Shown piece by piece: positions 4,991 through 62,900 of a stretch of 64,000 bases of DNA (position 1 is the stretch's first letter; each line of letters opens with the position of its first letter). The position numbers and the translations under genes were made by a program. The notes under the pieces are model-generated. The model did no database searches and was not told the origin of the DNA. It worked only from the letters and a program-made list of their open reading frames with translations. The stretch spans positions 96,001 to 160,000 of the forward strand of contig CAVVUN010000015.1 in NCBI GenBank assembly GCA_963751455.1. Direction: 5' to 3'. Source of the stretch: Nitrospirota bacterium (GTDB lineage: Bacteria > Nitrospirota > UBA9217).

Positions 4991-5062
4991 GATTGCGGAT
5001 TGCAGCCTGCACTCGCGCTTCGCATAAGCGCTGGCCGCAGGCGGAATGTGGATTGCGGAATG
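4991..5062. repeat. Heptamer repeat with a nested 39-nt palindromic mini-element
   Basis: gattgcg gattgc[agcctgcactcgcgcttcgcataagcgctggccgcaggc]g gaatgtg gattgcg gaatg. Confidence 0.85.
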
Positions 5063-5117
5063 TTTCGGACCGACGAACCGCAGTTCGTCTTCACCCAACT
5101 CAGCTTAAAGGAGCAGT

Positions 5118-6041
5118 ATGAGTTTAGTTACCGATAAAAAAATAGGGGTTCTTCTGGGAGGACTGTCATCGGAGCGCGAGGTGTCTCTCGCGAGCGGGAA
5201 TGCAATCCTGAAGGCGCTGAAGGAAAAGGGCTACCACCCGGTTGCGATTGATGTAAACAAGGACATTGCGCAAAAGCTCCATGAAGCCCGGATCGAAATT
5301 GCCTTTATCGCGCTTCACGGCAGGTTCGGCGAGGATGGGGCGATTCAGGGACTGCTCGAGGTCATGGGCATTCCCTACACCGGCTCCGGGATATTGGCCA
5401 GCGCCATAGGCATGAACAAATCAGTATCAAAGCAGGTGTTCCGGGCGCATGGGCTGCTTGTAGGCCCGTATGAAATTGTCTACACCGGAGACCGGCACAG
5501 CATACAGCAGATTCTCGATACAATCCGGTTTCCTGCTGTTATCAAGCCGCATGCTGAGGGATCAAGCGTCGGGGTGAGTCTTGTCTTCAAGAAGGAAGAC
5601 GTGGCGCCTGCCGTGGAGCTGGCATTCAGGTACGGCAATGAGATCCTGATCGAAAAATTCATAAAAGGCAAGGAAGTCCAGGTGGGCATTCTCGGCAACC
5701 GCGCGCTCGGCGCAATCGAGATCGTTCCGAAGCGGGCATTTTACGACTACGAAGCGAAATATGAAGCCGGCATGTCAGATCATTTTTTCCCGGCCCGCAT
5801 CCCGGATGACATATACAAAAGAACACTCGATGCGGGGCTGGCTGCTCATCGCGCCATCGGCTGCCGGGGCTACAGCAGGGTCGATTTTATCATTGACGAA
5901 GTAGGTCTGCCCTATATCCTGGAAGTCAACACGCTTCCGGGAATGACAGCGACCAGCCTGCTTCCCGAAATAGCGAAAGGGGTCGGAATATCGTTCCCGG
6001 ACCTGGTTGAGGAAATATTGAGGCTGGCGGTTATGGAATGA
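5118..6041 (+). CDS. ddl: D-alanine--D-alanine ligase
   Basis: GGLSSEREVSL, LHGRFGEDG, EGSSVG, YDYEAKY, SRVDF, LEVNTLPGMT. Confidence 0.97.
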   Translation: MSLVTDKKIGVLLGGLSSEREVSLASGNAILKALKEKGYHPVAIDVNKDIAQKLHEARIEIAFIALHGRFGEDGAIQGLLEVMGIPYTGSGILASAIGMNKSVSKQVFRAHGLLVGPYEIVYTGDRHSIQQILDTIRFPAVIKPHAEGSSVGVSLVFKKEDVAPAVELAFRYGNEILIEKFIKGKEVQVGILGNRALGAIEIVPKRAFYDYEAKYEAGMSDHFFPARIPDDIYKRTLDAGLAAHRAIGCRGYSRVDFIIDEVGLPYILEVNTLPGMTATSLLPEIAKGVGISFPDLVEEILRLAVME

Positions 6042-6097
6042 GCCGACCATGTCGGCGTTAATAGATAACGGCAACACGGTTGCCTTGGTCCAAAAAC

Positions 6098-6937
6098 ATG
6101 CGTGACTATAAAAATGTAAAAGTGCCAAGGGCCTATCGAACCACCGCGAAGCGGACGACCGTGAAGCGAGTTAATCGGATTTCGACCGGACCGGAGAAAA
6201 GTACAGGCCTGAAAGGAATTTTTCCGCAGGTACTCGTATTCTTTGTCATAGCAGGCGGGATCTGGCTGGGGTGGCAGGCATATATGCTGCTGACTAATGC
6301 CGAAATGTTCCAGATATCAGGCGTCGATGTGAAGGGCGTACAGCAGCTGGGCGAAGCGGACTTAAAGAAGATTGCCGGCGTATTCACCGGTCAGAACATA
6401 TTCCAAGCAGACATCGATGCGGCGGCCCGGCGTGCCCAGGCCAGTCCGTGGGTAAAGGAGGTCAGGATCCATCGAAGCCTCCCGAACAGGATTACGATGA
6501 CGTTCTTGGAGAGGGTTCCGCATGCGGTTCTCGATACAGGAACCGGCCGCTACCTCATGGACCGTGAGGGAGTGGTTATTGTCGGCTTGAAGGAAGCGGG
6601 CCGGGCCTGGGAGCTTCCGGTCATTGCGATCAAAGATTATAGCGCTACGCCAGGTCAGCCCGTAAGCCATGAATCCCTGGTCGAGGCGTTCACCCTTCTT
6701 GATGAAATAGCCGCGCGGGGAGGATGGAACGCCGCCGGTCTCACGGTCAAGGCCAACTCGCTGGAAACGCTGGCCCTCGTATATGCTGATCACGAGTTCA
6801 GAATCGGGAGCGGAAACTACAGTGAGAAGCTTCGCAGGCTTGCCGAGGTCATGGCCGATGCGAAAGAGCGTGGGTTGCAGGTGGCGTCTGTGGATGTGCG
6901 TGCGGAACGCCAGGCAGCAGTGATGGTGAGGAAATAA
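6098..6937 (+). CDS. ftsQ: Cell division protein FtsQ/DivIB
   Basis: Basic N-terminus, single TM helix, POTRA-like PWVKEVRIHRSLPNRI; located between ddl and ftsA. Confidence 0.88.
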   Translation: MRDYKNVKVPRAYRTTAKRTTVKRVNRISTGPEKSTGLKGIFPQVLVFFVIAGGIWLGWQAYMLLTNAEMFQISGVDVKGVQQLGEADLKKIAGVFTGQNIFQADIDAAARRAQASPWVKEVRIHRSLPNRITMTFLERVPHAVLDTGTGRYLMDREGVVIVGLKEAGRAWELPVIAIKDYSATPGQPVSHESLVEAFTLLDEIAARGGWNAAGLTVKANSLETLALVYADHEFRIGSGNYSEKLRRLAEVMADAKERGLQVASVDVRAERQAAVMVRK

Positions 6938-7055
6938 CGGGTTAGCGTTGATTGGCAACGAGGCCCGTATCGTATTGAATGGCAACGGTAACGTGATCTG
7001 CCTGACACGAACGACGTGACCGTCTGACGGAACGGGCATCGTGACCGTCACCGAT
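6937..7055. repeat. Intergenic hairpin with hexamer (ACGGTA/ACCGTC-like) units; related to 42759-42872
   Basis: cgaggcccgtatcgta ... gacggaacgggcatcgtgaccgtca, versus cgaggcccgtttcgta ... gacgatacgggcttcgtaaccgtca at 42786-42870. Confidence 0.7.
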
Positions 7056-7080
7056 TTGATGTGAGAACCGGAGGTGCGAC

Positions 7081-8304
7081 TTGGTAAAAAAACCGGACAA
7101 CGTGCTCGTGGGCCTGGACCTGGGAACCACGAAAGTCTGCGCGATTGTGGGCGAGGTGAAAGACGGCGGCCAGGTGGATATCATCGGGATCGGCATCAGT
7201 CCCTCTCACGGCCTGAAAAAAGGCGTGGTCGTCAACATCGACAGCACCGTGGAGTCCATAAAAAAGGCCGTCCAGGAGGCCGAACTCATGGCCGGAGTGG
7301 AGATAAACTCGGTCTATGTAGGCATCTCCGGGAGCCACATCAAGGGCATCAACTCGAGGGGTGTTGTTGCAATCAAGAATAAAGAGGTCGGCCCCTCGGA
7401 CATTGCACGCGTGATTGATGCGGCCCGGGCTGTGAACATCCCGATGGACCAGCAGGTCCTTCACGTGCTCCCCCAGGAATTTATCATAGACGACCAGGAC
7501 GGCATCAAGGACCCGCTCGGGATGTTCGGTGTCAGGCTGGAGGCAAAAGTCCATATCATAACCGGCGCCCTCACGTCCATCCAGAACATCGTGAAAAGCT
7601 GCTCCCGCGCAGGCCTGCACGTGAACGACCTGGTCCTTCAGCCGCTTGCATCGAGCCGCGCCGTTCTGACCGCCGAGGAGCAAAGCCTCGGTGTGGTCGT
7701 CGTGGATATCGGCGGCGGAACCACCGACGTGGCCCTCTTTCTAGAAGGAAGTCTCTGGCACAGCGAGGTGCTCCCGCTCGGCGGCAACCACCTGACAAAC
7801 GATATCGCGATCGGGCTTCGCACTCCCGCGTCGGAGGCGGAAAAGATCAAGATCAAATACGGGTGCGCCCTGTCGTCACTCGTAAAAAATGAGGAGACCC
7901 TTGACGTGCCGAGCGTGGGGGGGAGGCCTCCGCGCCTCCTTTCACGCCAGATCCTTTCCGAGATCATCGAACCCCGGGTTGAGGAGCTTTTCGGCATGGT
8001 TCAGCAGCGGCTCAAGAAGACCGGGTTCGAGGACATGTTTGCGTCGGGCCTCGTCATCACCGGGGGTGTAGCCCTGATGGAAGGCGTACAGGAGGCGGCT
8101 GAGCGATTTCTCGGTATGCCTATCCGAAGGGGAACGCCGAGAAACATCGGCGGACTCATGGATGTTGTCAACAGCCCGATCTACGCCACCGGCGTAGGGC
8201 TCGTGCTCCATGGCGCTGAAAATCAGCAGGCCTCTCCCCGAAAATTCAGGGCCGGCGGCGGAGCATTCAACAAGTTCTGGAAGTGGCTGGGAGAATACGT
8301 ATAG
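7081..8304 (+). CDS. ftsA: Cell division protein FtsA
   Basis: GLDLGTTKV, DIGGGTTD, VITGG, YATGVGL; TTG start preceded by GGAGGT. Confidence 0.97.
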   Translation: MVKKPDNVLVGLDLGTTKVCAIVGEVKDGGQVDIIGIGISPSHGLKKGVVVNIDSTVESIKKAVQEAELMAGVEINSVYVGISGSHIKGINSRGVVAIKNKEVGPSDIARVIDAARAVNIPMDQQVLHVLPQEFIIDDQDGIKDPLGMFGVRLEAKVHIITGALTSIQNIVKSCSRAGLHVNDLVLQPLASSRAVLTAEEQSLGVVVVDIGGGTTDVALFLEGSLWHSEVLPLGGNHLTNDIAIGLRTPASEAEKIKIKYGCALSSLVKNEETLDVPSVGGRPPRLLSRQILSEIIEPRVEELFGMVQQRLKKTGFEDMFASGLVITGGVALMEGVQEAAERFLGMPIRRGTPRNIGGLMDVVNSPIYATGVGLVLHGAENQQASPRKFRAGGGAFNKFWKWLGEYV

Positions 8305-8317
8305 CTAAAAGCGCTAT

Positions 8318-8418
8318 TGAAAAATGCAAATTGAAAATTGGAAATTGCAAAGCGAAGTGTTGAAAACATACAGCAAAGCGCGCGATTTCCAATCAACAAT
8401 TTCCAATGTTTTTGCAGT
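8318..8418. repeat. Heptamer (AAATTGC-type) tandem repeat plus degenerate inverse
   Basis: aaatgca aattgaa aattgga aattgca ... atttcca atcaaca atttcca atg. Confidence 0.75.
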
Positions 8419-8432
8419 AACCGGAGGGGACG

Positions 8433-9671
8433 ATGGACGATAATCTCGATTTTGGTTTCCAGGACATCATGGAATTTGTTGCGAACACGGGCAGCGGGGC
8501 GTCGGGAGATGCCCCATTACAGGAAACAGGCGAGGAGAGGAGGACTAACGGAATGTTCCAGTTTGCAGAAGAAAGGCTGCCTGCGGTCATCAAGGTGATC
8601 GGCGTGGGCGGCGGCGGGAGCAATGCCGTCAGCAGCATGGTTCAATCCGACATCAGGGGCGTGCAGTTCATCATTGTGAATACCGATATGCAGGCTCTGG
8701 AGCTTGCCCGGGCGCCGATCAAACTGCAGATCGGATCCAAGCTTACCTGCGGCAGGGGCGCCGGAGCAAATCCCGATATCGGCAGATCAGCTGCACTCGA
8801 GGACGCGGAAAAGATCAAGGCTGCCATGGCCGGCGCGGATATGGTATTCATTACAGCGGGGATGGGCGGCGGCACCGGAACAGGCGCGGCTCCTGTGATC
8901 GCAGGACTGGCGAGAGAGGTTGGGGCCCTCGCCGTCGGCGTTGTGACCAAACCGTTCAGTTTCGAGGGGATGACCAGGATGCATAAGGCGGAAGAGGGTA
9001 TCGCCGAACTCAAGAAGAGCGTGGACGCTCTCATCGTGATCCCGAATGAACGACTTCTTAATCTTGCTGAAAAGAAAACGACGCTCCTCGAATCCTTCAA
9101 GCTTGCCGACGACGTGCTCGGACAGGCTGTAAAAGGAATTTCAGATGTGGTGATGGTTCCCGGTTATGTGAACGTCGACTTTGCCGACGTCAAAACGGTA
9201 ATGTCCAGCCGCGGTCGCGCAGTCATGGGCACCGGCGTGGCCAAGGGCGAAAACCGCGCCATGGAGGCGGCCCAGAAGGCAATCGCAAGTCCGCTGCTGG
9301 AAGACGGTTCCATCAAAGGCGCCCGCGCCGTGCTTATCAACATAACCGGCGGGAACGACATGGGGATCTACGAGCTGAATGAGGCGTCGGCGATCATCAA
9401 GGAAGAAGTGGACCCGGGAGCGAACATTATTTTCGGCGCAGTGATCAACCCGGTCATGAGCGAGGAGGTAATGGTGACCGTGATTGCTACGGGGTTCGAC
9501 GAAGCGGGCGTCCATGAACGTCTGAAACGGCCGGTCAATCTGAAGGAATACATGAAGGTGGTGGAGAAGCCGAGGCGCAGGCAGGAGACCTTTGAGTTCA
9601 AGAATGACGCTCTCGGCATAGACCATGAAGACCTTGATAAGCCGACCTTTCTCAGGCGGCAGGCGGATTAG
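8433..9671 (+). CDS. ftsZ: Cell division protein FtsZ (alternative start at 8553)
   Basis: IKVIGVGGGG, GGGTGTG tubulin motif, NVDFADV, C-terminal DLDKPTFLRRQAD. Confidence 0.98.
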   Translation: MDDNLDFGFQDIMEFVANTGSGASGDAPLQETGEERRTNGMFQFAEERLPAVIKVIGVGGGGSNAVSSMVQSDIRGVQFIIVNTDMQALELARAPIKLQIGSKLTCGRGAGANPDIGRSAALEDAEKIKAAMAGADMVFITAGMGGGTGTGAAPVIAGLAREVGALAVGVVTKPFSFEGMTRMHKAEEGIAELKKSVDALIVIPNERLLNLAEKKTTLLESFKLADDVLGQAVKGISDVVMVPGYVNVDFADVKTVMSSRGRAVMGTGVAKGENRAMEAAQKAIASPLLEDGSIKGARAVLINITGGNDMGIYELNEASAIIKEEVDPGANIIFGAVINPVMSEEVMVTVIATGFDEAGVHERLKRPVNLKEYMKVVEKPRRRQETFEFKNDALGIDHEDLDKPTFLRRQAD

Positions 9672-9770
9672 GGCAAAAAAAAACCACAGTAAGCAGGGCC
9701 AGGAGAGGTTCTGCAAAATGTGGTTCGAATAGTTAGAATAAGTGCATCCCGTGGGACGCACACTGTGGTA

Positions 9771-10151
9771 TTAATGGGAGTTGCTGTGTTTATCGGCGCC
9801 GGCCGTTACCGCGGATGTACCCAGTATCGCCATTTTTTCCTTTTCCAGGGACCTGTCCATTCCGAGTCGCGTGTGAGAAAAACCGAGAGGAGTAGGCTCT
9901 TCTTCCCGCTTTACCGAGTTCATGAAGTCGCAGCGCCAGCAGTTGTTCAGTTTCTTTGCATACGTTCCCTGAATCTTTCCGCCGCAAAGCGATCCCGCGA
10001 TTACCCAGCATGCCCGCCCCGCGTTTGTTCCGCCGTGAGAGCCATTTAAATCGCTGTAAACCGTGACCGGGCAAATTCCGAGATCGGCCACCTTATTTCC
10101 GCCCGGCTGACGGCCGCATTTCTTATGCTCCCAACAGTTCGTTTTCGGCAT
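9771..10151 (-). CDS. Two-CW-domain Cys-rich protein
   Basis: NCWEHKKCGR...CPV...AGRACWVIAGSLC...CWRCDF pattern; AAGGGG RBS before ATG 10151. Confidence 0.75.
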   Translation of the reverse strand: MPKTNCWEHKKCGRQPGGNKVADLGICPVTVYSDLNGSHGGTNAGRACWVIAGSLCGGKIQGTYAKKLNNCWRCDFMNSVKREEEPTPLGFSHTRLGMDRSLEKEKMAILGTSAVTAGADKHSNSH

Positions 10152-10336
10152 ATTCAAATCCCCTTTCGTCGACCTGTTACATCCGTCTCAGATCAGTATA
10201 GCGTTCCTTCTCTAATGTTGCATATCTTTATACCTATCCGGCAAATCGTACGGATACTATACCGATAAAAAAAGCAGGTTGTCAACGAAATAGTTTGAAT
10301 GAAGATCATATTGTAATTAAAAGTTGATAATGTTTT

Positions 10337-11071: not shown

Positions 11072-11257
11072 GATGTCCCCCGTGGAGTAATTTATTCCGG
11101 CTGTTTCCATCCAGCCGTTGTCTATTATAAAGGATGCGGAGCAGAACCCTCAAGCATAATCTTTGTCTAATTCCTGCAATCTCTCTTTAACTATTTCAAC
11201 AATTGTGAAATGAATCAATCCGCAGTTGAATCTTTTCCAGTCACGTATTCATTCCGA

Positions 11258-11286
11258 TTGACAATCACCATATGTACTGCTAAAGT
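11258..11286 (+). promoter_or_regulatory. Sigma70-type promoter
   Basis: TTGACA-17 nt-TAAAGT with TG extension, 10 nt upstream of ATG 11297. Confidence 0.6.
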
Positions 11287-11296
11287 GTTCAGAATT

Positions 11297-17744: not shown

Positions 17745-17803
17745 GAAACCGACAGACAAGCGACGTGAAGCGACGGAACCGACGTGTAACAGAGAGGCGA
17801 GCA

Positions 17804-18178
17804 TTGGGGAACATTCAGAGCCATAAAGATCTGCACGTATGGCAGGATGCAATGGATGGAGCCATGGAGATTTATGCCATTACCAAAGCATTTCCCCCTG
17901 ACGAGAAGTATTCTCTTGTGGACCAAATCCGGAGATCGTCTCGGTCGGTTGCTGCGAATCTTGCCGAAGCGTGGAGAAAGCGAAGATATGAGGCAGCATT
18001 TAAGAGCAAGTTGAATGATGCAGAAGCAGAAGCGTCCGAAACGCAAACATGGATAGAAGTAGCGCTTCGGTGTTCTTATATTGACAAGCAAACTGCAGAT
18101 AAACTGGATCAGAAATACGAGCATATTCTGACGAGGTTAGTTTCCATGAGTCGGGATGTCGGGAATTGGACGCTGTAA
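17804..18178 (+). CDS. Four-helix-bundle protein (23S rRNA-IVP/TIGR02436-like)
   Basis: DLHVWQ, FPPDEKYSLVDQIRRSSRSVAANLAEAW, EASETQTW; TTG start inferred from AGAGG upstream. Confidence 0.9.
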   Translation: MGNIQSHKDLHVWQDAMDGAMEIYAITKAFPPDEKYSLVDQIRRSSRSVAANLAEAWRKRRYEAAFKSKLNDAEAEASETQTWIEVALRCSYIDKQTADKLDQKYEHILTRLVSMSRDVGNWTL

Positions 18179-19844: not shown

Positions 19845-20199
19845 GGGGGCGACAGGCTTCGACGGGGACACAGAGGTCAGGAGTTGCATGCCGAGGTGCC
19901 ATGGGGTCTCGTTAAACACATGGCAAAATAGAACTGCCAATAACGAACTGGCATACGCAGCCTAATTAACTAGGTCGCGCGTCTCCCGGCTGCCGCCTGA
20001 GCGGCCGAAGGGATGTCACAATTCGGGCTGGTCTTCCTGTTATGTCCGGGGCTGGAAGATAAGATAATCCGGGCTGGCCGATTCCGGAGCTTTCCCCGAG
20101 GCGACTGAAAAGGCGAGAGCTTTAAACGAGGGGAAAAGCATGTATGAGCTTCTGTCTGACGGTTTTCGGACGTGGGTTCGAATCCCACCGCCTCCACCA
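19845..20199 (+). ncRNA. ssrA: tmRNA; tag (A)ANNELAYAA* at 19936-19965
   Basis: 5' GGGGGCGACAGGCTTCGACGGG, 3' T-arm GTGGGTTCGAATCCCAC and CGCCTCCACCA acceptor end; tag ORF ends YAA*. Confidence 0.97.
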
Positions 20200-21917: not shown

Positions 21918-24900
21918 TCAATGGTGATCAGATTGATCCACTGCTAAAGAGACAGAAGCTGTGCCATGTAATAATGCAGAATAAGTAACAACACCTGATA
22001 ATGGCATGCTTCCTATAAACCAGGGCCATTTTGACCAACCGTCGGTCAATCCCACCCACCATCTCCCATTTATATTGTGATTCCATATATCATGTAAAAC
22101 AGCTAGGGCATTTTGACCAGGAATGAAATTCGCAAGAAAACTAACAGGACCTCCTTCTTTTAAAGGCCACAGATAAAAAGGTACTCCACTTCCTCTATTT
22201 GAAAATCCCCAATTCATCATTGTGGTCCAGGTTACTGCCTCATCGTTCAGTTTAGGAGAAGCCCCGAGACCTGGAAGTGGATTTGGACCCTGCCCATTGC
22301 AATCATTACAGCCTGGCACATCAGTTAATGAGTTCTGATAAATCAATTCAGCGCCACTACTCAGGGCAGACATATAGAAACCATTCCAGAATTTGCCGCC
22401 CTGCGCGTGAGCAGATGCGCCACCAACAAGACCTGACGCAGCAACCTGTCCTGTATAACCTGCAATACTGTCAGTTTCCCAGTCCATGATATATGAACTT
22501 GCCATAGATGTTCCCCATGAAATTGCTGCAGATTTCAGCATATCATTGAAATGTCCTCCATAAGCGTATGCTTCATACGCACCAATTACTGCTGAACCAG
22601 CGCCATAGTACTCATCTCCTATATAACTAGCAGCTATATGTATCGCAGCATTATAATATCGATTATTGAAGTACTTCGCGTGTTTATTCTGCCTCCTATG
22701 CCCGGTTGGATCCGCATAGTTGACTGGATTGTTCCCCACATAAGAGTATCTGTTAAGTGATTGCGGATTAGTGAAATTAGGTACAATTGTATCCGCGGTG
22801 ATAAATCTACCGAGAACAGGATTATAGTACCGCGCATTGTAGTAGTACAACCCTGTATCTGCATCGAGTTCTTGTGACGTGTACTTGTGCGCCATTGATA
22901 CCGATCCAGTGTCCATACTGGTTGCCCCGAATGGCATGTATTGTATTTCTTCCATTTTATTGCCATTTCCGTTGGTTATCACCCTGTTGCTTCCCAGATG
23001 GTCTTGGTGGTAGTACATGACCTCAGAGCTCACCTTGTTAGCTACAAGGACTCCTCCTGCAAAAATATATTTCGAGCAAATGCCTGCTTTGCACTCGTAG
23101 TGCTTGCCGATATAAATATTTGTCCCGGTTGGTGCGGCCTTTTTTACTCGCTGGCCGTTGTAGTCGTATGTAAAGTTAATTGTCTTTCCATAGGCAGTGA
23201 CGCTCTTAGGCATGTTGTCTTCGTTATATACAATCATGCGGGTGCCGTCCGTGAGCATGTTGCCGTTGGGGTCGTAGTTGTAGGTCTTGCCATCGGGAAG
23301 TGTGGTTCTTACCGCATGAGGCTTGAGGCCGGTCTGGTCGTAGGTGTACGTTAGGCCCTCTTTTGAAGTGATGTTTCCGATTTGATCGTAATCATACGAC
23401 AGCGTTCCGTAGCTCGTGCTCTGGGCCTGCCACAAACGGTTCAGCTCGTCATACAGGAAAGCCTGAGAGCGACTTGAATCTATCGCATCAGTCATGGTTG
23501 AGATGTTGCCTAAATTGTCATATACATACGTCAGGTTCAAAAGCTGAGGCTCCGATGGCTTTCCAACCTGGATTGATTTAAGTCGATTGTTTCCGGGATA
23601 GTACTCAAAGGTTGTGTTAACGCCGTTGCCATAACTTAATATTCGTGCCTGTCCGAGGGGGTTATACTCATAATATTGCGCATAGGGAGTAGCATTGCTA
23701 CCTGTCACCACAGAAAGGACTTCCGCATCGTAAATATACGAAACAATCTCCTGATCTGGATATTTTATACTTGTTACTCTGTCAAGGCTATCGTAGCCGT
23801 ACTCCGTGGTATAGTTCACAGCAGTAATCGTCTTGACGGTCTTTTTTGGCCTTCCTTTAATGTCATAATGGTACACTATCTGGCCGGAACCGTCCGTAAC
23901 CTTTGAAAGCCTGCCCTTGCTGTAAGTGGACGTCGGCAGATCATAGTAATATGTGACCGGGACTGGGGCGAGCTTGTTCGTCACTCTGTTCAGCTTGTCG
24001 TAAATGAAACTGATAGTCTGCCCCTTGGCGTCTTTTTGGGATATTACATTGCCGTTAGCGTCATATTGATAGGTCCAGTTGCCGGCCTCGCCGTCATCCG
24101 TCGCGCTGCTCATGTCGGGATCATGCATAAAGGTTTTCCTGCTGAGTGTGTCATAGCGCATTCGGGTCTCATTCCCTGCGGCATCGGTCACCTTCAAAAG
24201 GTTTCCGAGCACATCGTACTGATAAGTAGTCGTGGCATAAGGGCTCTCTATGCCTGTTGTGCAGTCGTTGAAAGTGCCTAAATATTCTTCGACCTTGGCT
24301 AACCGACCGAGGGTGTCCCTAGTTTCCCGCCTTCGGTGACCGTTTGCATCGATAGATACAGTTACACCGTCATTATAGCAGCCAAGGGTCACCGTTCCAT
24401 CCGGCTCGCTGACCCGAACATTACGGCCAAGGGCATCATAAGTGAATGTTTTCCAGCTAACAATATCGTCGATTCCCTCGAAATAGGGCAGAGAAGTTTG
24501 CAAAACAGTTCCCGTGGCATTATATTTCGTCACGGATCTAATAGTTTTTGTATCAGGACCGGTCTTTTCCACTGCGGCTGTTCTACCCATGCCGTCGAAG
24601 TATGACCAGGAAAAGAGCCCGGTTGATGTGTCTATCCTGACATGCTGCTCCCCGACAATGCCAAAATCAATATACGACCGGTTGATCCATCCTCCATCCG
24701 GCGTTGTGGTTTTTGTTGGACGTCCGAATACATCGTATTGTGACGTGGTCACAGCGCCGTTCGGATCGGTAATTTTCCTTACTTGCCCGTAAAGGCCGTT
24801 ATCCGAAGCAACCCCGTCTATGCCATAGTACTGGGTCAGGGTAGTATGCCCGAGCGGATTTTTCGCAGTCGTGGAAAATGTGTACGAATTGTCGTACATA

Positions 24901-27900
24901 AAGGTTGAAATATTTCCCTTCGGGTCCCGTGTGCAGGCGAGATTTCCGTAGGCGTCGTACGCCATGCGCACTGCCGGGTTCGTTCCTCCATCGAGCCAGC
25001 GTACAATACGAGTGAGATTGCCTTTCGTGGGCGGCTGGTTTTCGGGAGTCATTGCAGCAAACGTGCAGTCCACAGGCTCGTCATAATAGAATGTAGTTTC
25101 AGCCGTTTTGATGGTAGCGGTCGTTCCGCTATATATGGTCTCACTCGCAGGCAGGCTAAGAATCCATTTATCTGTATTCGGGAAATAGGTCCTTTCAACT
25201 CTACGGTCGTCAGTTGCATCGGTCACATCACCATAATGCTCTTCGCGCGTCACGTTGCCGTATGCATCGTAGGCGTAAATGCTCTTTGTCTCTCTGGTAC
25301 AAGCGTCGCCGTCGCAAAGATATGAATGGACCTCCTCCGGCGGATTGAAATAGGGCGTTCCGCTGCCGGCACTATATAGCGTTGTTGTTTTAGAATATTC
25401 CCGGCCTTGTGCATCGGTCAGGCGAGAATAGTAAGGCTTGCCTTTCATATAACCGTCATTGCCGGAAGGGTTGTCTACATAAAGCGATGGGTTTGCTATA
25501 TCGACTGTACCGGTTACATTGCCGCGGTGGAACCATGTCTCTGTTACGAGTTGCTCGCCGTCCGGCCCGGCTGGCCCGGTGACCGTCACGTGATTAAAGC
25601 CACGGAATTCACGTTCGCCGATATGATAGTACCCGCCGGAATAATTATACAGAGTGGTCGATTCTATCCCCATACATAGAGACGTTGTAGAATCATAATT
25701 TTCGCAGTTTTTAATGACGCTGAGCGTCTGTATGGGAAAGGGGAGCTGTGTGTTATTATATTGTGAAGAAGGCTTATATGTTATATTTGTATTCCCACCT
25801 ATACCGTTCAGAATATCTGAGACCATATTTACTGCATTACCTGACCCTACAGCTACAGATAGACTCGTATCTATGTTTATATGACCGACGTCGATTTTAC
25901 CGTCGCCGTTAAAATCTCCAAAATTGTACCTGCTTGCATCACCCCACCCCATGCTCCCCCACGGATAGCGGGCAGTAAATCGAGAACCCTTGGAAAAAAT
26001 AACCGATAACGTGCCGTCATTGATGTTAATGTTGAGCACATCACTCCTGCCATCTCCGTTGAAATCCCCCAATTTTATACGCCATGGGTCACCCCATCCA
26101 ACACCACCCCACTCAGCCGCCGGCTCAAACCCCGTTCCGTTCGATACGGCCACCAACAACGATCCGTTCACCTCGTCGATGTTAATAAATAGCACGTCCG
26201 TTTTGCCATCGCCATTAAAATCGCCCAACATGTGCCGTTCCGGATCGCCCCAGCCAGCATGTCCCCATGGTTGAGACGTTGATGAAGTTGTGAAACCGGT
26301 ACCCGTGGACAGAGCTACTGTCAAGGGACCATTCATTGACGGCTCGTCCAGATTTATGAAGAGCACATCTGTCTTACCATCCCCGTTGAAATCGCCCAGC
26401 ATGTGCCGTTCCGGATCGCCCCAGCCAGCATGCCCCCATGGTTGAGGTGTTGATGAAGTGGTAAAACTGGTCCCTGTCGACAGAGCCACTGTTAACGTGC
26501 CATCCATATTGATGAAGAGCACATCGGTCTTCCCGTCTCCGTTAAAGTCGCCCAGCATATGCCGTATCGGATCGCCCCAGCCGGCATGCCCCCACGGTTG
26601 AGATGTTGACGAAGTGGTAAAATTAGCGCCTGTGGAAAGAGCCACTGTTAAGGGACCATTCATTGACGGCTCATCCAGATTTATAAAGAGCACATCAGTT
26701 TTCCCGTCCCCGTCAAAGTCGCCCAGCATATGCCGTATCGGATCGCCCCAGCCGGCATGCCCCCACGGTTGAGATGTTGACGAAGTGGTAAAATTAGCGC
26801 CTGTGGAAAGAGCCACGGTTAAGGGACCATTCATTGACGGCTCATCCAGATTTATAAAGAGCACATCAGTTTTCCCGTCCCCGTCAAAGTCGCCCAGCAT
26901 ATGCCGTATCGGATCGCCCCAGCCTATTTCTCCCCAAGAGGTGGCCGGATCGAAGGAAGTATTTTCATCTGAATATTTTATGTTGATGGCGGGTAGAGCA
27001 CTGCCTTCGGTAATAGTCCCATTATCAAGAGAGGCATCTTTCCCATATTGCTGCACGGCTGACAGGATAGAGCGTTCGGTCGATGTACTAGGGGAATACG
27101 CTAATTTATACGCCCGGACGCGATTGCCACTGGCAATAACATCTATTGTTTTCAACCTGAAGGCAGTTCTTACCCGAAAATTAACGGTGTACATATCCGG
27201 AGCGTCGGTACGGGATTCAAGATGGAATTTGACGTAATTCGTAGTCGGTGTTCCATCCGTATTGGCTGTATAAGATATTTGATTAAGATAAATTTGTCCT
27301 TCATAAGCATGGCCCTGTACTTCCTTTGCATATGAGAACGTCATATAGTTGCCGTTTGTGTCTTCGACCGTATCCAAGCACCATTTGAAGACTCTGTTCC
27401 CGTTCGAAGGGTCATCTTGTTTAGGCGTAGCAGTTCCATACGCAGTTTTTCCAAAAGTAAACTTTGTTCCTTTTTTATCAAATACCTCCCAGTAATTCGG
27501 GCTGCCGTCTAGATTGACAATTTTCATTACTTTAAAAAAGACCCCCTCTATTTTTGCCCGATATTCGTTTTCGTTTACATTTACCAAATCCATGGTCGCG
27601 CCGGCGACGTTCAAGATATATCCATCAGTTTCGGTGTAAGACAAGCCATGTTTAGCGCTTCGCTCAATGGACCCTACTTCAAGTTCCCATCCGAACCCAA
27701 CCCAACTGTCTCCATTATTGCTTCTATATGTCAATGCAAGACCCGGATCCATGCCTTTTCGGCCGAAGGGCACCTCAATCGGGATCGAGTAAGACATGGT
27801 TCCGGTCGAAAGATCGGGCATAACTGTTCCACTGCCCGCGCCTCCGCTTAATCCAACTTTATATTTTGGTGCAGACTGGCTGCTGCCCGTATCATTGGCA

Positions 27901-27995
27901 AAAGCAGGTCTAAATAAGACTGCGATCAGAGAACACAAGCAGATTGAAAGAAAGACTTTAATCCAATCATTTACGTGAAAGAAAATGCGCCACAT
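21918..27995 (-). CDS. SpvB/TcdB-like, FG-GAP and YD/RHS-repeat protein with RHS core and about 260-aa C-terminal tip
   Basis: GGGGAGG RBS before ATG 27995; signal-peptide-like N-terminus; LALTY...GWEL, GDFNGDGKTD repeats, REFRGF, YD repeats, GLYYYNARYY, NPVNYADPTG. Confidence 0.92.
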   Translation of the reverse strand: MWRIFFHVNDWIKVFLSICLCSLIAVLFRPAFANDTGSSQSAPKYKVGLSGGAGSGTVMPDLSTGTMSYSIPIEVPFGRKGMDPGLALTYRSNNGDSWVGFGWELEVGSIERSAKHGLSYTETDGYILNVAGATMDLVNVNENEYRAKIEGVFFKVMKIVNLDGSPNYWEVFDKKGTKFTFGKTAYGTATPKQDDPSNGNRVFKWCLDTVEDTNGNYMTFSYAKEVQGHAYEGQIYLNQISYTANTDGTPTTNYVKFHLESRTDAPDMYTVNFRVRTAFRLKTIDVIASGNRVRAYKLAYSPSTSTERSILSAVQQYGKDASLDNGTITEGSALPAINIKYSDENTSFDPATSWGEIGWGDPIRHMLGDFDGDGKTDVLFINLDEPSMNGPLTVALSTGANFTTSSTSQPWGHAGWGDPIRHMLGDFDGDGKTDVLFINLDEPSMNGPLTVALSTGANFTTSSTSQPWGHAGWGDPIRHMLGDFNGDGKTDVLFINMDGTLTVALSTGTSFTTSSTPQPWGHAGWGDPERHMLGDFNGDGKTDVLFINLDEPSMNGPLTVALSTGTGFTTSSTSQPWGHAGWGDPERHMLGDFNGDGKTDVLFINIDEVNGSLLVAVSNGTGFEPAAEWGGVGWGDPWRIKLGDFNGDGRSDVLNININDGTLSVIFSKGSRFTARYPWGSMGWGDASRYNFGDFNGDGKIDVGHINIDTSLSVAVGSGNAVNMVSDILNGIGGNTNITYKPSSQYNNTQLPFPIQTLSVIKNCENYDSTTSLCMGIESTTLYNYSGGYYHIGEREFRGFNHVTVTGPAGPDGEQLVTETWFHRGNVTGTVDIANPSLYVDNPSGNDGYMKGKPYYSRLTDAQGREYSKTTTLYSAGSGTPYFNPPEEVHSYLCDGDACTRETKSIYAYDAYGNVTREEHYGDVTDATDDRRVERTYFPNTDKWILSLPASETIYSGTTATIKTAETTFYYDEPVDCTFAAMTPENQPPTKGNLTRIVRWLDGGTNPAVRMAYDAYGNLACTRDPKGNISTFMYDNSYTFSTTAKNPLGHTTLTQYYGIDGVASDNGLYGQVRKITDPNGAVTTSQYDVFGRPTKTTTPDGGWINRSYIDFGIVGEQHVRIDTSTGLFSWSYFDGMGRTAAVEKTGPDTKTIRSVTKYNATGTVLQTSLPYFEGIDDIVSWKTFTYDALGRNVRVSEPDGTVTLGCYNDGVTVSIDANGHRRRETRDTLGRLAKVEEYLGTFNDCTTGIESPYATTTYQYDVLGNLLKVTDAAGNETRMRYDTLSRKTFMHDPDMSSATDDGEAGNWTYQYDANGNVISQKDAKGQTISFIYDKLNRVTNKLAPVPVTYYYDLPTSTYSKGRLSKVTDGSGQIVYHYDIKGRPKKTVKTITAVNYTTEYGYDSLDRVTSIKYPDQEIVSYIYDAEVLSVVTGSNATPYAQYYEYNPLGQARILSYGNGVNTTFEYYPGNNRLKSIQVGKPSEPQLLNLTYVYDNLGNISTMTDAIDSSRSQAFLYDELNRLWQAQSTSYGTLSYDYDQIGNITSKEGLTYTYDQTGLKPHAVRTTLPDGKTYNYDPNGNMLTDGTRMIVYNEDNMPKSVTAYGKTINFTYDYNGQRVKKAAPTGTNIYIGKHYECKAGICSKYIFAGGVLVANKVSSEVMYYHQDHLGSNRVITNGNGNKMEEIQYMPFGATSMDTGSVSMAHKYTSQELDADTGLYYYNARYYNPVLGRFITADTIVPNFTNPQSLNRYSYVGNNPVNYADPTGHRRQNKHAKYFNNRYYNAAIHIAASYIGDEYYGAGSAVIGAYEAYAYGGHFNDMLKSAAISWGTSMASSYIMDWETDSIAGYTGQVAASGLVGGASAHAQGGKFWNGFYMSALSSGAELIYQNSLTDVPGCNDCNGQGPNPLPGLGASPKLNDEAVTWTTMMNWGFSNRGSGVPFYLWPLKEGGPVSFLANFIPGQNALAVLHDIWNHNINGRWWVGLTDGWSKWPWFIGSMPLSGVVTYSALLHGTASVSLAVDQSDHH
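26544..26923 (-). repeat. Near-perfect 171-nt (57-aa) tandem duplication within FG-GAP repeats
   Basis: 26550-26720 and 26721-26891 differ at one base; a third partial copy starts at 26892. Confidence 0.9.
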
Positions 27996-28328
27996 ATTAG
28001 TCCTCCCCAAAAATATAAAGTTGTAAACAAAAGCGAAAATATCGGCGAAAGATAGGAATGGTACCAAGATTGAAAACTTCTAAACTCGGCTAGCTGTTTT
28101 ACCTTGATATGGCAAGAAAGAGATACAAGATACTTTAGTTCGAAAAAAGATAACAAAATAAAAAATGCGTGTCAATGAATATTTATGCATAAATTAATAA
28201 TTGAGTGCAACTATGCGCAACTTACTGCGATTCGTTTATGAATTTTTCGGCTTGACTATATTATTAGTATGTAATACTATTTTCGTAGAAAAAATTCTAA
28301 CGCGCTTCACTGATGCAGGAGGTGCACT

Positions 28329-56070: not shown

Positions 56071-56091
56071 GGCGACATATTCAAGCATAGC

Positions 56092-56123: not shown

Positions 56124-56239
56124 ATTCTCCATTAATGTGCGTGTTATATACTAGATCGCGAGGTTAAAGCCTTGCCCCGCAGTTAAGCAGTTCATTTTGC
56201 TTTAAAATAAATTCCGAACGTTGTATTATAGGCACTGGT

Positions 56240-58593: not shown

Positions 58594-58769
58594 AATCATG
58601 TTTTCACTGGCGGATGGTCTTGTTTATTCAAGTTACAAGCGTTTTATGGCATGCCCCGCGTCTTAATCCTGCGCGACAAGCATAAAAAACCAGTTGACAT
58701 CCGTAACCCACCACTGCTACTCTTTAAATTCCAATTAAGCCTCAAATATGTTATCAAGGAGGAAACCGC

Positions 58770-59051
58770 ATGTATTTTCTTGCTGTTAATAAAGTAAAAC
58801 AGAATGTGGAGCCTGCCAAAATAGGCGCTGTGATCCCTCCGCATGTTCAATGGCTCAAGGAGTGCGTTGCCGAAGGAACGGTAGTCCAGGCGGGAAAATG
58901 GGGCGACTCGGGTGGCATATCCATTGTCAGGGCTGATAGCCTTACAGATGCCATGGAAATTCTGAAAAATGACCCTCTTGTGCAGTCAGGATTAATTACT
59001 TTCGAAACGGCGGAACTCCATCCGCTCGTCGAGATGAGACAGGAGCGGTAA
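58770..59051 (+). CDS. YciI family protein
   Basis: HVQWL, AG, GG, NDPLV.G; AAGGAGG RBS. Confidence 0.8.
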   Translation: MYFLAVNKVKQNVEPAKIGAVIPPHVQWLKECVAEGTVVQAGKWGDSGGISIVRADSLTDAMEILKNDPLVQSGLITFETAELHPLVEMRQER

Positions 59052-59054
59052 ACA

Positions 59055-59489
59055 ATGGCACGGATCGGAATACTGACCTGCTCGAACGCCACCCAGGACC
59101 TTGGCTGCTCCTCCGTGAGCTGTCTTGCGGACCTGAGGAAGAGAAAAGGCGCATTCGCCGTATATCCGGCGGAGCAGCGGCTCGACCTGGTCGGCATCAT
59201 CAACTGTCCCGGCTGCCCGACCGTTATCGGACCGGAGAAGCTGCTCCAACGCATTCGGGCGCTGACCGAGTTTCGGTTGGATGCCATCCATTTCTCGAAC
59301 TGCGTGAAGGCCCTTTGCCCGTTCAAGCAGCAATACGAAAGAGTTTTGACGGAAGCATTCCCTGCCATCAAGATCGTTGTCGGGTCTCATGAGGAGCATA
59401 TCACCCCGGAAGAATTCAGGCAGCGGGTAAAGAAGCTGTTTTGCCAGCCGAGAAAAACGATGGTCGATGTGATACTGGATAAAGATTAA
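59055..59489 (+). CDS. CGGC domain protein
   Basis: IGILTC...C...C, GIINCPGCP, IHFSNC, CPF, VVGSH. Confidence 0.85.
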   Translation: MARIGILTCSNATQDLGCSSVSCLADLRKRKGAFAVYPAEQRLDLVGIINCPGCPTVIGPEKLLQRIRALTEFRLDAIHFSNCVKALCPFKQQYERVLTEAFPAIKIVVGSHEEHITPEEFRQRVKKLFCQPRKTMVDVILDKD

Positions 59490-59530
59490 CGAGGCAATAC
59501 CTTAGACCGCTAATGCATAACAAAAGCGTC

Positions 59531-59601
59531 TCTCGCAAAGCCGCAAAGAACGCAAAGGAAACCTTATATCCTGGTTTTAACCCGAGTGACTGGACTTGCG
59601 A
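59531..59601. repeat. 9-nt-period repeat arm with eroded inverse
   Basis: tctcgcaaagccgcaaagaacgcaaagg ... cttgcga. Confidence 0.65.
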
Positions 59602-59676
59602 AAAACATTCTGGTTTTGTGCAAACTCAAGAAATCAACTCAATTTTAAGGTGATCCCAAGTAGAGGTTAATGTGAA

Positions 59677-60495
59677 ATGAATAACCAGTATGTTCATGGA
59701 TATCATCCGTCAGAAAGCATCCGTTTGCAGGACCAGGCTTCAACCCTGGTGGAACTCCTGCATTCCGACACCCGGTATGAATCGGGATGCAGCGTGCTGG
59801 AAGCCGGGTGCGGTGTAGGCGCACAAACAGTGACGCTCGCCGCGAACAGTCCGGGGTCCCGGATAACGGCGGTGGATATCTCCGGGGAATCACTGGCTGA
59901 GGCAAGGAGAAAGATCCAGGCTGCGGGACTGACCAATGTCACGTTCCTTCAAGCAAATATCTTCAATTTGCCATTTGAGCCGGAAACCTTCGATCATCTG
60001 TTCCTCTGTTTTGTGCTGGAACACCTGCCTGATCCGGTTCAGGCGCTTACGTCTTTAAAAAAATACCTGAAGCGGGGCGGCACCATTACCGTAATAGAAG
60101 GCGATCATGGGTCAACCTTCTTTTACCCGGACAGCGAAGACGCCCGCCACGCTGTGAGTTGCCAGGTGGAACTGCAGAAAAGGGCAGGGGGAAACGCGAT
60201 GATCGGTCGCGGACTTTACCCGCTATTAACAAAAGCCGGGTACAAATCAGTCCGTGTCTCGCCGAGGATGGTGTATGTCGATTCGAGCAAACCGCACCTT
60301 GTCGACGGTTTTACAAAAAAGACCTTTACGGCAATGATCGAGGGGGTACGCAGCTCCTCGCTCAAGGCAGGTATCATAGACGAAGCGACCTTCGATAAAG
60401 GCGTCAAGGCTCTTTACCGGACAACAGAACCCGACGGTATTTTCTGCTACACCTTTTTCAAGGCATTCGCTGAAAAGGTGCAGCAAGACACGTGA
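59677..60495 (+). CDS. Class I SAM-dependent methyltransferase
   Basis: VLEAGCGVG, VDIS, FVLEHL.DP, LKRGG. Confidence 0.92.
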   Translation: MNNQYVHGYHPSESIRLQDQASTLVELLHSDTRYESGCSVLEAGCGVGAQTVTLAANSPGSRITAVDISGESLAEARRKIQAAGLTNVTFLQANIFNLPFEPETFDHLFLCFVLEHLPDPVQALTSLKKYLKRGGTITVIEGDHGSTFFYPDSEDARHAVSCQVELQKRAGGNAMIGRGLYPLLTKAGYKSVRVSPRMVYVDSSKPHLVDGFTKKTFTAMIEGVRSSSLKAGIIDEATFDKGVKALYRTTEPDGIFCYTFFKAFAEKVQQDT

Positions 60496-60787
60496 GCGAA
60501 GTTGATAAAGAACTTTTACGATTGCGTCAACTTAGGATCATCTTGCAGAGTTTATCCTGAGTGTGGAGGATAAGGTTCATTACCTTCGTTCGGGATGACA
60601 GCACGAGCGGCCTAAATGACAAAACAGGCTGTTCTTGAGTTTATACGTGTGGCTGCGGGGGATTCTATTATAATTTTGCTGAAAAAATAGAACAATCAAA
60701 ATCCGCAGGGCCACGGAGAAGACAATTCCGCGGCCTTTTTTATTACCCGCTGCGGGCTGACCCCCGTTATTCGTTGAAGGAGGAAAC

Positions 60788-61213
60788 ATGAAGGATTCGT
60801 TGAAGCCAGGCATTGAGTCCGAATTTACGTTCCGTATTCCTGAATCCAAAACCGTACCCGCCTTGTACCCGGAATCTGCTGAATTCCTGCAGATGCCGCT
60901 GGTATTCGCTACAGGATTCATGGTCGGCTTTATCGAATGGGCCTGCATCAAAGCCATTAATCCCCATCTTGACTGGCCGCAGGAGCAGACGGTGGGCACT
61001 CATATCAATGTGTCGCATACGGCCGCAACCCCACCGGGAATGGCAGTAACCACGCTGGTAAAGCTCGTTAAAGTAGACGGCCGCCGTCTGCTGTTTGACG
61101 TTGAGACCCGTGATGAAGTTGAAGCGATCAGCAGGGGAACCCATGAGCGTTATATTATTAATAAAAATAAATTCGATGAGAAAATACGTGAAAAAAACAA
61201 CAGGAAAAAATAA
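60788..61213 (+). CDS. Hotdog-fold thioesterase, FlK-like
   Basis: VFATGFMVGFIEWAC (Thr/Glu), TVGTHINVSHTAATPPG (His), GTHER. Confidence 0.9.
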   Translation: MKDSLKPGIESEFTFRIPESKTVPALYPESAEFLQMPLVFATGFMVGFIEWACIKAINPHLDWPQEQTVGTHINVSHTAATPPGMAVTTLVKLVKVDGRRLLFDVETRDEVEAISRGTHERYIINKNKFDEKIREKNNRKK

Positions 61214-61248
61214 GCGTATTCTCATACCGGTTCAATCCTCAGGCCTGA

Positions 61249-62139
61249 ATGAATGAAAGCAGAAAGATAAAAGTGATCCTGGCACTCGGGACCCTCTACC
61301 TTGCCTGGAGTTCGACCTATCTTGCCATACGGGTCGCCCTGGAGGACTTTCCGCCTTTCTTTATCGCAGGCTTTAGGTACATGCTGGTCGGCGCCGGGAT
61401 TTATGTCTATTTGCGAAGCAAAGGCGTTCCAGCACCTGCTGCAAGGGAATGGGGCGGATCACTCCTCATCGGCGTGTTCCTGCTTCTTGGCGGCACTGCA
61501 GGCGTTGTGTACGCCGAGATGTGGGTGGGATCGGGCCTCGCGGCTCTCGTACTTGCAACCTCACCGCTTCTTACTGTGTTGTTTGCAGGTATTTGGGGAC
61601 ACCGGCCTGCCCGTAACGAATGGCTTGGAATGCTTCTGGGCCTGGCCGGGATCGTTCTGCTCAACATGGAAGGCGATCTGCGGGCGCATCCGCTGGGAGC
61701 AGCGCTTCTGATTGTTGCCTCGGCTTCGTGGTCCTTCGGTTCGATCTTGAGCCTGCACGTACCGATGCCGTCAGGAATGATGGCAAGCGCTTCGCAGATG
61801 TTTTCAGGCGGTCTGTTTGTGTTCATTCTAAGCCTAGTCTCGGGCGAACAATTACCGCTCGACCCCTCCCTTCGCGCGCTCGGGGCGCTGCTCTGGCTCG
61901 CGGTCTTCGGTTCGCTCCTCGGATATACTGCATATACCTATCTGCTGACGCATGTAAGACCTGCGCTGGCAACCAGTTATGCGTATGTAAATCCGACCCT
62001 GGCAGTACTGCTCGGAGTCTGGCTTGGCAACGAGCATGTTACAAAGACCAGCCTTCTTGCTATGCCGATCATTCTTTCCGGAGTGGTTCTGGTAATACTG
62101 GGCCAGAAGCGAGAGATACGGCCAAGGACGAAGGATTAG
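61249..62139 (+). CDS. EamA/DMT transporter (YedA-like)
   Basis: YLAWSSTYLAIR, SGLAAL, FGSLLGYTAY, SYAYVNP. Confidence 0.92.
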   Translation: MNESRKIKVILALGTLYLAWSSTYLAIRVALEDFPPFFIAGFRYMLVGAGIYVYLRSKGVPAPAAREWGGSLLIGVFLLLGGTAGVVYAEMWVGSGLAALVLATSPLLTVLFAGIWGHRPARNEWLGMLLGLAGIVLLNMEGDLRAHPLGAALLIVASASWSFGSILSLHVPMPSGMMASASQMFSGGLFVFILSLVSGEQLPLDPSLRALGALLWLAVFGSLLGYTAYTYLLTHVRPALATSYAYVNPTLAVLLGVWLGNEHVTKTSLLAMPIILSGVVLVILGQKREIRPRTKD

Positions 62140-62141
62140 TC

Positions 62142-62900
62142 AATTACAAGTGAAAATCTTTCAAAACAGAAAGAATATATTGACCGCGAAGACGCGAGGG
62201 ACGCCAGGAAACCGTAAAGCGTTTTTTCAGGTTTAAACTCCAGCGTCCAGTTTCGCCTTCCTCGCGACCTCTGTCTTGTGCCCAGCGTTTACGAGTGCCA
62301 AGCGCGAGTGCAGGGTACGCCTTGGCGGTTCAAAGGTTTTGTATCCGGCTTGTCCGGGTTAGGAACGAGGGAGGTACCGGAAATGAAGAAGAATGTTGCG
62401 ACCAGGTTAATTACAAGTGAAAATCTTCTCAAAACGGAAAGAATATATTGACCGCGAAGACGCGAGGGACGCCAGGAAACCGTAAAGCGTTTTTTCAGGT
62501 TTAAACTCCAGCGTCCAGTTTCGCCTTCCTCGCGACCTTTGCGCCTTGGCGGTTCAAAGGTTTTGTATCCGGCTTGTCCGGGTTAGGAACGAGGGAGGTA
62601 CGGGAAATGAAGAAGAATGTTGCGACCAGGTTAATTACAAGTGAAAATCTTCTCAAAACGGAAAGAATATATTCACCGCGAAGACGCGAGGGACGCCAGG
62701 AAACCGTAAAGCGTTTTCAGGTTTAAACTCCAGCGTCCAGTTTCGCCTTCCTCGCGACCTTTGTCTTGTGCCCAGCGTTTACGAGTGCCAAGCGCGAGTG
62801 CAGGGTACGCCTTGGCGGTTCAAGGGTTTTGTATCCGGCTTGTCCGGGTTAGGAACGAGGGACGTACCGGAAATGAAGAAGAATGTTGCGACCAGGTTAA
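62142..62900. repeat. Three-unit tandem array (about 267/224/267 nt)
   Basis: Units start aattacaagtgaaaatctt at 62142, 62409, 62633; units 1 and 3 carry a 44-nt insert (62274-62317, 62764-62807) absent from unit 2. Confidence 0.95.

Follow-up and report, generated by a model that had tools for sequence, protein, structure and literature searches.

A 42-44-nt hairpin repeat of Nitrospirota is inserted precisely into other repeats and may move as a folded single strand

The 64,000-nt stretch of DNA analysed here (the window; positions 96,001 to 160,000 of contig CAVVUN010000015.1, Nitrospirota assembly GCA_963751455.1) contains four copies of a very small, gene-less repeat that we call element A. 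Typical copies are 42-44 nt long and are inserted precisely and without target duplication, with a preference for other repeats. Covariation among the copies points to a strand-specific irregular hairpin with an unpaired tail of 4-5 nt that is maintained by compensatory change. We propose, at about even chances of being correct, that element A is a non-autonomous single-stranded DNA (ssDNA) hairpin moved in trans by a HUH-like strand transferase.

A 13-mer shared by the four copies matches the window exactly at 1422, 5006, 62302 and 62792, where chance would give 1.68 matches in a shuffled window even with two mismatches allowed; the places inside other repeats given in a preliminary description of this DNA are therefore sound. 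Insertion can be seen in three tandem units near the end of the window. Their alignment bears out the filled and empty sites described earlier, since an identical 44-nt insert is present in units 1 and 3 and exactly those 44 nt are missing from unit 2, with no duplication. The element limits first proposed needed adjustment. The 39-nt and split copies are real, but their ends were one base off: comparison with empty sites places the start at the C before the noted start and the end before the host C, giving 5003-5041 and 1419-1553. This shift is formally ambiguous where both ends are C and was settled by T-starting variants. The copy at 5003-5041 is degenerate.

Element A forms a substantial family in the source genome (G000, 5.72 Mb in 15 contigs, of which C1, C15 and so on are individual contigs; other G numbers are relatives or records). 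The 13-mer has 64 exact matches there, and a profile built from 129 simple copies yielded 232 matches at E<=1, 150 at E<=1e-4 and none in the reversed genome. Copy number is thus about 150-230, at 184 loci, and the concern that only a few copies might exist can be set aside. For 74 of the 129 copies the rebuilt empty site is present elsewhere in the genome, compared with 30/200 random intergenic sites and 36/250 motif-matched intergenic sites (p ~1e-15). Other repeats are therefore preferred as hosts beyond the target motif, in agreement with the precise movement into repeats suggested in the preliminary description. The further suggestion that hairpins are favoured among repeats was not supported, the insertion bond being unpaired in 48/129 rebuilt empty sites and in 138/400 controls, with no enrichment for hairpin loops.

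The 129 copies occupy 79 host-context clusters. Hosts comprise heptamer runs, short tandem runs of the CACGGAT and CGCAAAG types, several hairpins resembling repetitive extragenic palindromic (REP) sequences, a second repeat family (family B, below) and element A itself, which is entered at three internal bonds. The host of the window tandem unit has 67 sites, of which 63 are empty and three hold element A, and the remaining one is filled at that same bond by a sister element of 31 nt; the three A-filled sites represent two loci with different host subvariants. At every one of the 16 syntenic junctions listed with a copy in a relative, the source genome is without it. The deacetylase (HDAC) gene of the source genome carries an 84-nt in-frame insert, one element A within another, inside a run of four heptamers; the insert is absent from all five orthologues, two of which retain the heptamer run uninterrupted. 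Overall, no significant local hopping emerged (p=0.13 for distances of 0.3-5 kb), yet four similar copies cluster in a cobalamin operon. The relative G070 has a head-to-tail run of four copies.

The conserved fold differs from a simple palindrome. By covariation, the five bases at the start pair with the five that precede the tail, so that base 1 pairs with base -6 and the tail is left unpaired, and on these grounds we rejected a terminal-inverted-repeat reading of the type seen in miniature inverted-repeat transposable elements (MITEs). The earlier label of a REP-sized palindromic element therefore stands for its REP-like tail and imperfect hairpin, and falls for the simple palindrome, the apparent terminal inverted repeat not being the conserved stem. 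Read 5' to 3', the predicted hairpin strand consists of the tail, a 5-bp helix, an A.A mismatch, a 3-bp helix, a 4-nt bulge, one pair, tandem GA/GA, a 4-bp helix and a variable loop.

We scored 13 pair columns in 108 of 123 distinct copies, 15 having been dropped because they could not be parsed. Watson-Crick pairs filled 1064 cells and 47 cells held other combinations; cells with G.T alone numbered 262 on the tail-first strand and 31 on the other, the asymmetry that identifies the strand. Six pairs showed compensatory change above all of 2000 column shuffles, and the tandem GA/GA is retained in 105-106 of the 108 copies. In a set of 40 diverse copies, 94.4% of cells were paired, with 34 double changes (0/500 shuffles) distributed over 7 pairs (27/500 shuffles), and slid controls scored far lower. 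Element A has no Rfam match at the gathering threshold, the only such match in the window being a transfer-messenger RNA (tmRNA). A kink-turn was also considered: this motif has a 3-nt bulge directly beside tandem G.A pairs, and it was rejected for element A because a covarying Watson-Crick pair (81 CG, 18 TA) stands between the 4-nt bulge and the GA/GA.

On the strand quoted in the preliminary description, the first base of the element lies at the stem foot and the last 4 nt form a tail, CAGG or CAAG, to which a fifth base is sometimes added; on the hairpin strand this tail is CCTG/CTTG-like and lies 5' of the stem. The host base that follows is C in 101/129 raw copies of the source genome, and in 242/253 copies from this genome and its relatives once a class with a 5-nt tail, which is our own parse, is allowed. 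The site is mostly preceded by a pyrimidine and a purine, in that order, so that on the hairpin strand the target is a bond after G, usually G|YR, and its logo contains one near-invariant base only. Variants differ in this respect. A base other than C follows T...A-ended variants in 11/55 host clusters and C...G-ended variants in 3/94 (p=0.001), and host T follows in 4/55 and 1/94, respectively (p=0.06), in a T...A sample that was enriched by a dedicated pattern. The terminal stem pair thus appears to tune the target base, a modest signal that we regard as a lead; C pairing with G only, and T with A or G, on the hairpin strand would give such an end-dependent target. Beyond the first base, a mutual-information scan gave no clear signal of tail-to-target complementarity. 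The strand bias of the hairpin is 93:65 (p=0.03); it is weak, and whether it agrees with a preference for the lagging-strand template turns on which strand is the active one.

Two further repeat families accompany element A. Family C, a sister family, is 31 nt long with a shorter core (23 copies in the source genome, for example C2:248856-248886); it shares with element A the tail and the end pairs, including their compensatory sets, is followed by C in 21/23 copies and uses the same host bond as element A at C15:1047652. The tRNA-like context of one sister copy proved not to be a tRNA. Family B is ~59 nt long and hairpin-like, with 77 simple copies found by one pattern in the source genome; it interrupts 22/154 element A left arms, nests in itself and in element A, and occurs in head-to-tail arrays with as many as six units, which are not identical. 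One pattern that finds 32 copies in the source genome did not find family B in four relatives and the phage treated below. Its arrays (for example C15:1354272-1354529 and C14:28114-28530) have junctions that look less precise than those of element A.

The distribution of element A is narrow and patchy. A pattern search found it in 32/57 genomes of the class, all carriers belonging to one family, with 0 to 37 pattern matches per genome within genera. A covariance model found it in 14/26 other genomes of the same family and in 0/94 genomes of other families of the phylum. In a GTDB scan with at least 108 matches, 76 of the 80 listed are labelled Nitrospirota/Nitrospirae/Nitrospiria and none is a cyanobacterial record; among those listed, three otherwise-labelled records have 1, 4 and 1 matches, which mis-binning or mislabelling may explain. 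A 38-kb Mu-like phage record (G078) has three copies and a second phage contig has one, and phages can therefore carry element A. Two of six viral matches (L120, L124) were dropped as chance because the right arm is absent. The Mu-like phage (L119, L122) also has short tandem host repeats that are found in bacterial genomes. No copy was found in or near 58 tRNA/tmRNA calls or two 16S motifs of the source genome.

Element A belongs with a type of repeat defined as dispersed, gene-less and shorter than 100 nt. Small dispersed repeats (SDR) of Nostocaceae, reportedly 21-27 nt long, are said to have been described by Elhai et al. in 2008 as lying nested within heptamer runs or other SDRs and as sharing a fold with compensatory change. 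To our knowledge, the movement of repeats under 50 nt has been without an explained mechanism since that report. Element A, at 42-44 nt and 184 loci, has the same traits of precise insertion into repeats with empty sites and a fold with compensatory changes, and in neither case is a mover known; it differs in being about twice as long, in its Nitrospirota host and in its defined tail, bulge and GA/GA motif. We place element A in the cyanobacterial SDR type as a new and larger variant, on the strength of citing passages and of the traits just listed. In the passages concerned, later papers citing SDR put their length at ~20 nt and give no mechanism (PMC4390886, PMC5861425, PMC2884548); SDR5 is described as inserted precisely into another repeat, HIP1 (PMC4390886), and one scan as revealing no SDR-like repeat outside Nostocaceae (PMC5861425). 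A description of the element A family was not found in the open-access library searched. What element A offers is precisely known ends, a single-strand fold that covariation supports, a rule for its target and end variants that seem to shift the target base, while sister families with common ends and congeneric genomes with 0 and >30 copies should be useful for finding the mover.

Other systems resemble element A in part. REP sequences and their doublets (REPINs) with associated RAYT enzymes, as the cited passages portray them, share with it a 20-40 nt scale, an imperfect hairpin preceded on its 5' side by a tetranucleotide tail, a single active strand and some intragenic copies (PMC3333891, PMC8266576, PMC3733652, PMC3116915, PMC6006769). 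The imperfect hairpin and the favoured strand (262 against 31 strand-specific wobble cells) are present in element A, whereas the GTAG/CGTC tag and a cognate Y1 gene flanked by copies (0/33 in the source genome) are not; in addition, the unit of element A is a single hairpin and not a doublet, its ends are fixed at the stem foot, and its junction follows G, where that of REP sequences is C|T or C|A. The IS200/IS605 elements, from which the gene-less PATEs derive, are likewise described as having no terminal inverted repeats, no target duplication and precise filled and empty alleles; element A differs in having one hairpin rather than two ends with subterminal hairpins and in that the target 5' of its cut is not a fixed sequence of 4-5 nt, and no parent insertion sequence with its ends was found in the source genome. 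Rickettsia palindromic elements also enter protein-coding genes in frame, according to the cited passage (PMC3733652), although element A is much shorter, mostly intergenic and lands in heptamer runs already present in a protein loop.

The fixed ends at the base of a helix, the preference for one strand, the retained irregularities, the short 5' tail and the lack of duplication together have the design of a substrate for single-strand transfer, and it is for this reason that we chose a HUH-like reading. The HUH precedents described in part of the cited work have no terminal repeats, no target duplication, a guide 5' of an imperfect hairpin and a bulge that is needed (PMC3333891, PMC8266576). 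By analogy, an enzyme encoded elsewhere would cut out or copy the hairpin and join it to the target bond by one-strand transfer, as do HUH enzymes of the IS200/IS605 and RAYT types. The folded strand would be DNA rather than RNA, a protein would read the bulge, mismatch and GA/GA motif, and the first stem base would pair with the target base beside the cut, T...A-ended variants accepting host T as well and C...G-ended variants hardly doing so. A closed dumbbell circle may serve as the intermediate, for the tail has just the length needed to bridge the stem, and head-to-tail copies lend this slight support. Element A is probably selfish and near-neutral, surviving where its hosts already mark tolerant DNA. 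In a bolder version, which we consider improbable, a 43-nt closed dumbbell circle would be opened at one bond, targeted by pairing of the first stem base (perhaps also the tail) and joined by an enzyme outside the known transposase classes, A, B and C all being cargo of one undescribed, base-pair-programmable single-strand insertion system. If true, these would be the smallest mobile elements known, and would also seed new protein loops.

The search for a mover was negative in the classes tested. The source genome has 33 Y1, 6 GIY-YIG, 4 IS110 and 6 reverse transcriptase (RT) matches, and none is flanked by element A; the RAYT/TnpA(Y1) or GIY-YIG gene between copies that the preliminary description had envisaged is thus not seen among the 33 and 6 matches. 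The nearest copy to a Y1 match is 494 nt away, from one fragment, and 29 of the 33 matches are >3 kb from a copy. The Y1 genes inspected carry other repeats, and their IS200 ends differ from element A; only one RT match has a neighbouring copy, which lies within a group II intron. Neither 251 clustered flanking open reading frames (ORFs) together with the ORFs of 118 loci, nor the genes beside 19 family B sites, yielded a recurrent neighbour. The inverted pair of copies on the phage flanks tail genes and not an enzyme, and 20 ORFs from part of the Mu-like phage include Mu-type transposition proteins, a methylase and an HNH protein, with no HUH protein.

Co-occurrence was assessed in 38 genomes at least 90% complete, comprising 26 carriers, taken from the pattern and covariance-model searches, and 12 non-carriers, two of the latter having been checked by pattern only. 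RT was found in 13/26 carriers and 7/12 non-carriers, IS110 in 11/26 and 4/12, integron integrase (IntI) in 14/26 and 4/12, GxxExxY in 22/26 and 8/12, and the four-helix bundle in 20/26 and 10/12; for these five class-wide profiles, association with element A gave Fisher p values of 0.23-1.0. The Y1 profile was run on 10 chosen relatives and the GIY-YIG profile on five. G071 (one contig, 98% complete, 7 copies) and G070 (88% complete, 36 pattern matches) have no Y1 match, whereas copy-free G053 has 22. The near-complete carriers G009, G066 and G071 have no RT at E<=1e-30. An IS110-dependent MITE was rejected on the IS110 counts and for want of a duplicated 2-nt core. An integron attC site was rejected similarly: attC core sites are RYYYAAC/GTTRRRY, these motifs are absent from the alignment, and IntI occurs as given above. 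In sum, no mover was identified among Y1, GIY-YIG, IS110, RT, IntI, GxxExxY and four-helix-bundle proteins, none of which flanks or tracks element A. The genomes are kin and many are fragmented, and co-occurrence tests are for this reason weak against a lost or transient mover; a lost, phage-borne or unannotated mover may be compatible with these negatives.

As separate observations on the RAYT-like genes of this genome, the C15:331964 region has a Y1/RAYT-like ORF of 475 aa that reads through its own flanking REP copies into a heptamer run. About 15 related genes of ~300 aa (C1:546104, C15:1291667 and others) are bounded by terminal inverted repeats, one of them being split by an IS200 element and one adjoined by an integron integrase (C1:554479).

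Besides the missing mover, several results weigh against a HUH-like ssDNA hairpin. No long, gene-bearing version with element A ends was found in the source genome. The C rule is looser in the raw copies and gains its strength from our definition of the tail class, and at a few sites a host base has apparently been changed or lost. If the G-rich strand is leading, the 93:65 strand bias is opposite to the lagging-template bias of the hairpin strand in IS608-type elements. RNAalifold recovered both outer helices and chose a different inner pairing. With DNA parameters the predicted fold is marginally stable, at a mean of -1.5 kcal/mol with the GA pairs not credited, and the G.T/G.U and GA/GA features suit RNA no less than DNA. 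Passive hitch-hiking inside copied hosts, furthermore, accounts for some of the copies, since those that share a host are more alike (mean 5.6 compared with 10.6 edits).

These results bear on the alternatives to different degrees. Were the folded strand RNA, a small structured transcript would be joined to DNA or RNA targets and fixed by an RT acting in trans. The conserved G.U-type wobbles and tandem GA, the far greater stability with RNA parameters (mean -10.4 against -1.5 kcal/mol), the six RT matches and the copy in a group II intron all suit this route. We nevertheless judge it unlikely, given that RT does not track element A (13/26 carriers, 7/12 non-carriers; none at the above threshold in G009, G066 and G071), that truncated ends, duplications and an Rfam match are lacking, and that the hairpin strand is the mRNA strand in only 32/82 co-directional gaps. 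That element A is an ordinary REP family, served by a known RAYT/IS200 (PF01797) enzyme of the genome whose gene has lost its flanking copies, would fit its REP-like size and tail-plus-imperfect-hairpin layout, the 33 Y1 matches and the ease with which Y1 genes are lost from metagenome-assembled genomes. This too is improbable: no Y1 gene is flanked by element A and the inspected ones carry other repeats, the tail is not GTAG/CGTC, Y1 matches (0, 0 and 22) run counter to copies in G071 (7), G070 (36) and G053 (0), and the RAYTs tested in the work cited above cut, in the passages concerned, at CT or CA and not after G.

Dispensing with a dedicated mover altogether, stray hairpins could be ligated into nicked or fragile host repeats by housekeeping repair or a type IA topoisomerase, which would explain both the host preference beyond sequence motif and the absence of a co-occurring mobile enzyme among those tested. 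Such capture at breaks seems to us rather unlikely, because a single cut rule (C next in 242/253) holds in 129 unrelated host clusters and so speaks for one specificity, an identical bond serves two element families, and the family-limited, patchy spread is unlike that of a universal enzyme alone. A few old insertions copied with their hosts and by gene conversion would account for the closeness of same-host copies and could produce a filled-empty-filled array. As the sole cause this is largely refuted, and very improbable, in view of the spread of 129 copies over 79 host clusters, the entry of element A into itself at three internal bonds, the independent sites that relatives and phages have, and compensatory evolution, which requires selection on the fold. 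Finally, an assembly artefact might be suspected in the tandem array, the one read run examined (share 0.05) having covered no junction of this strain; this has next to no probability, given that the empty junction recurs at 62 further sites of the genome and the insert at one more locus, and that the family is present in 32/57 genomes, and the collapse of unit 2 feared at the outset is in that sense dismissed. A single-strand transfer of the HUH kind is thus the reading that we carry forward.

Element A also enters genes. Among 158 strong matches, 38 lie within crude ORFs; 12 of these ORFs were scanned, 11 have a Pfam family, and 7 have the insert inside a matched domain or between two of them (CbiX-C, CbiE-T, CbiL, CbiH, NifEN, deacetylase and TPP enzyme). 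The element thereby adds loops of 14-28 residues to enzymes such as NifEN and cobalamin methylases. In the cobalamin-synthesis operon (L177, C9:85501-97000 of the source genome) four genes each have in-frame inserts, and four neighbouring copies share a bulge variant without a TAA stop. A fused NifEN-type nitrogenase scaffold gene (L178, C15:1051930-1054897 of the source genome) has two in-frame insert blocks, one of them an element A within another. A further copy lies in the RNA region of a group II intron upstream of its RT gene (L185:457-498), and an insert with this same intron setting is also seen at metagenome locus L274.

Table 1. Element A copies in the window, their hosts and the predicted fold of copy 3 (window coordinates).
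Feature	Coordinates	Strand	Remarks
Element A copy 1	1419..1553	- (hairpin strand minus)	Split by family-B composite; at ftsW-murG junction
Family-B composite (B half with second B inside)	1440..1532	.	93 nt, in element A's own internal target site
GATTGCG-type heptamer run, host of copy 1	1401..1566	+	Host bases 1401-1418 and 1554-1566
Element A copy 2	5003..5041	-	39 nt, 4-nt internal deletion; murB-ddl junction; 39.6 bits with model R1
Heptamer run, host of copy 2	4991..5062	+	Host bases 4991-5002 and 5042-5062; the genome also has empty equivalents at other places
Three tandem units, filled-empty-filled	62141..62900	+	Host repeat (dispersed, ~180 nt, non-coding) with spacer; EamA gene lies upstream
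Element A copy 3	62274..62317	+	44 nt; 66.5 bits
Copy 3, predicted outer fold	tail 62274-62278; outer helix 62279-62283/62313-62317; helix 62285-62287/62309-62311		A.A mismatch between the two helices
Copy 3, predicted inner fold	bulge 62288-62291; pair 62292/62308; tandem GA/GA 62293-62294/62306-62307; helix 62295-62298/62302-62305; loop 62299-62301		
Empty target bond, tandem unit 2	62541..62542	+	G|C, no duplication
Element A copy 4	62764..62807	+	Same sequence as copy 3

The host repeat of the tandem array has ~60-70 partial copies genome-wide and is triplicated in tandem here. Elsewhere in the window, a four-helix-bundle gene (23S rRNA IVP family; 17765-18178) lies between proC and a yggT-family gene, and the tmRNA gene (Rfam RF00023) occupies 19845-20199. 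A 2049-aa RHS/FG-GAP protein with SpvB and TcdB mid/N-terminal domains is encoded on the minus strand at 21918-28067, and its gene has internal 171-nt tandem repeats at 26185-26924.

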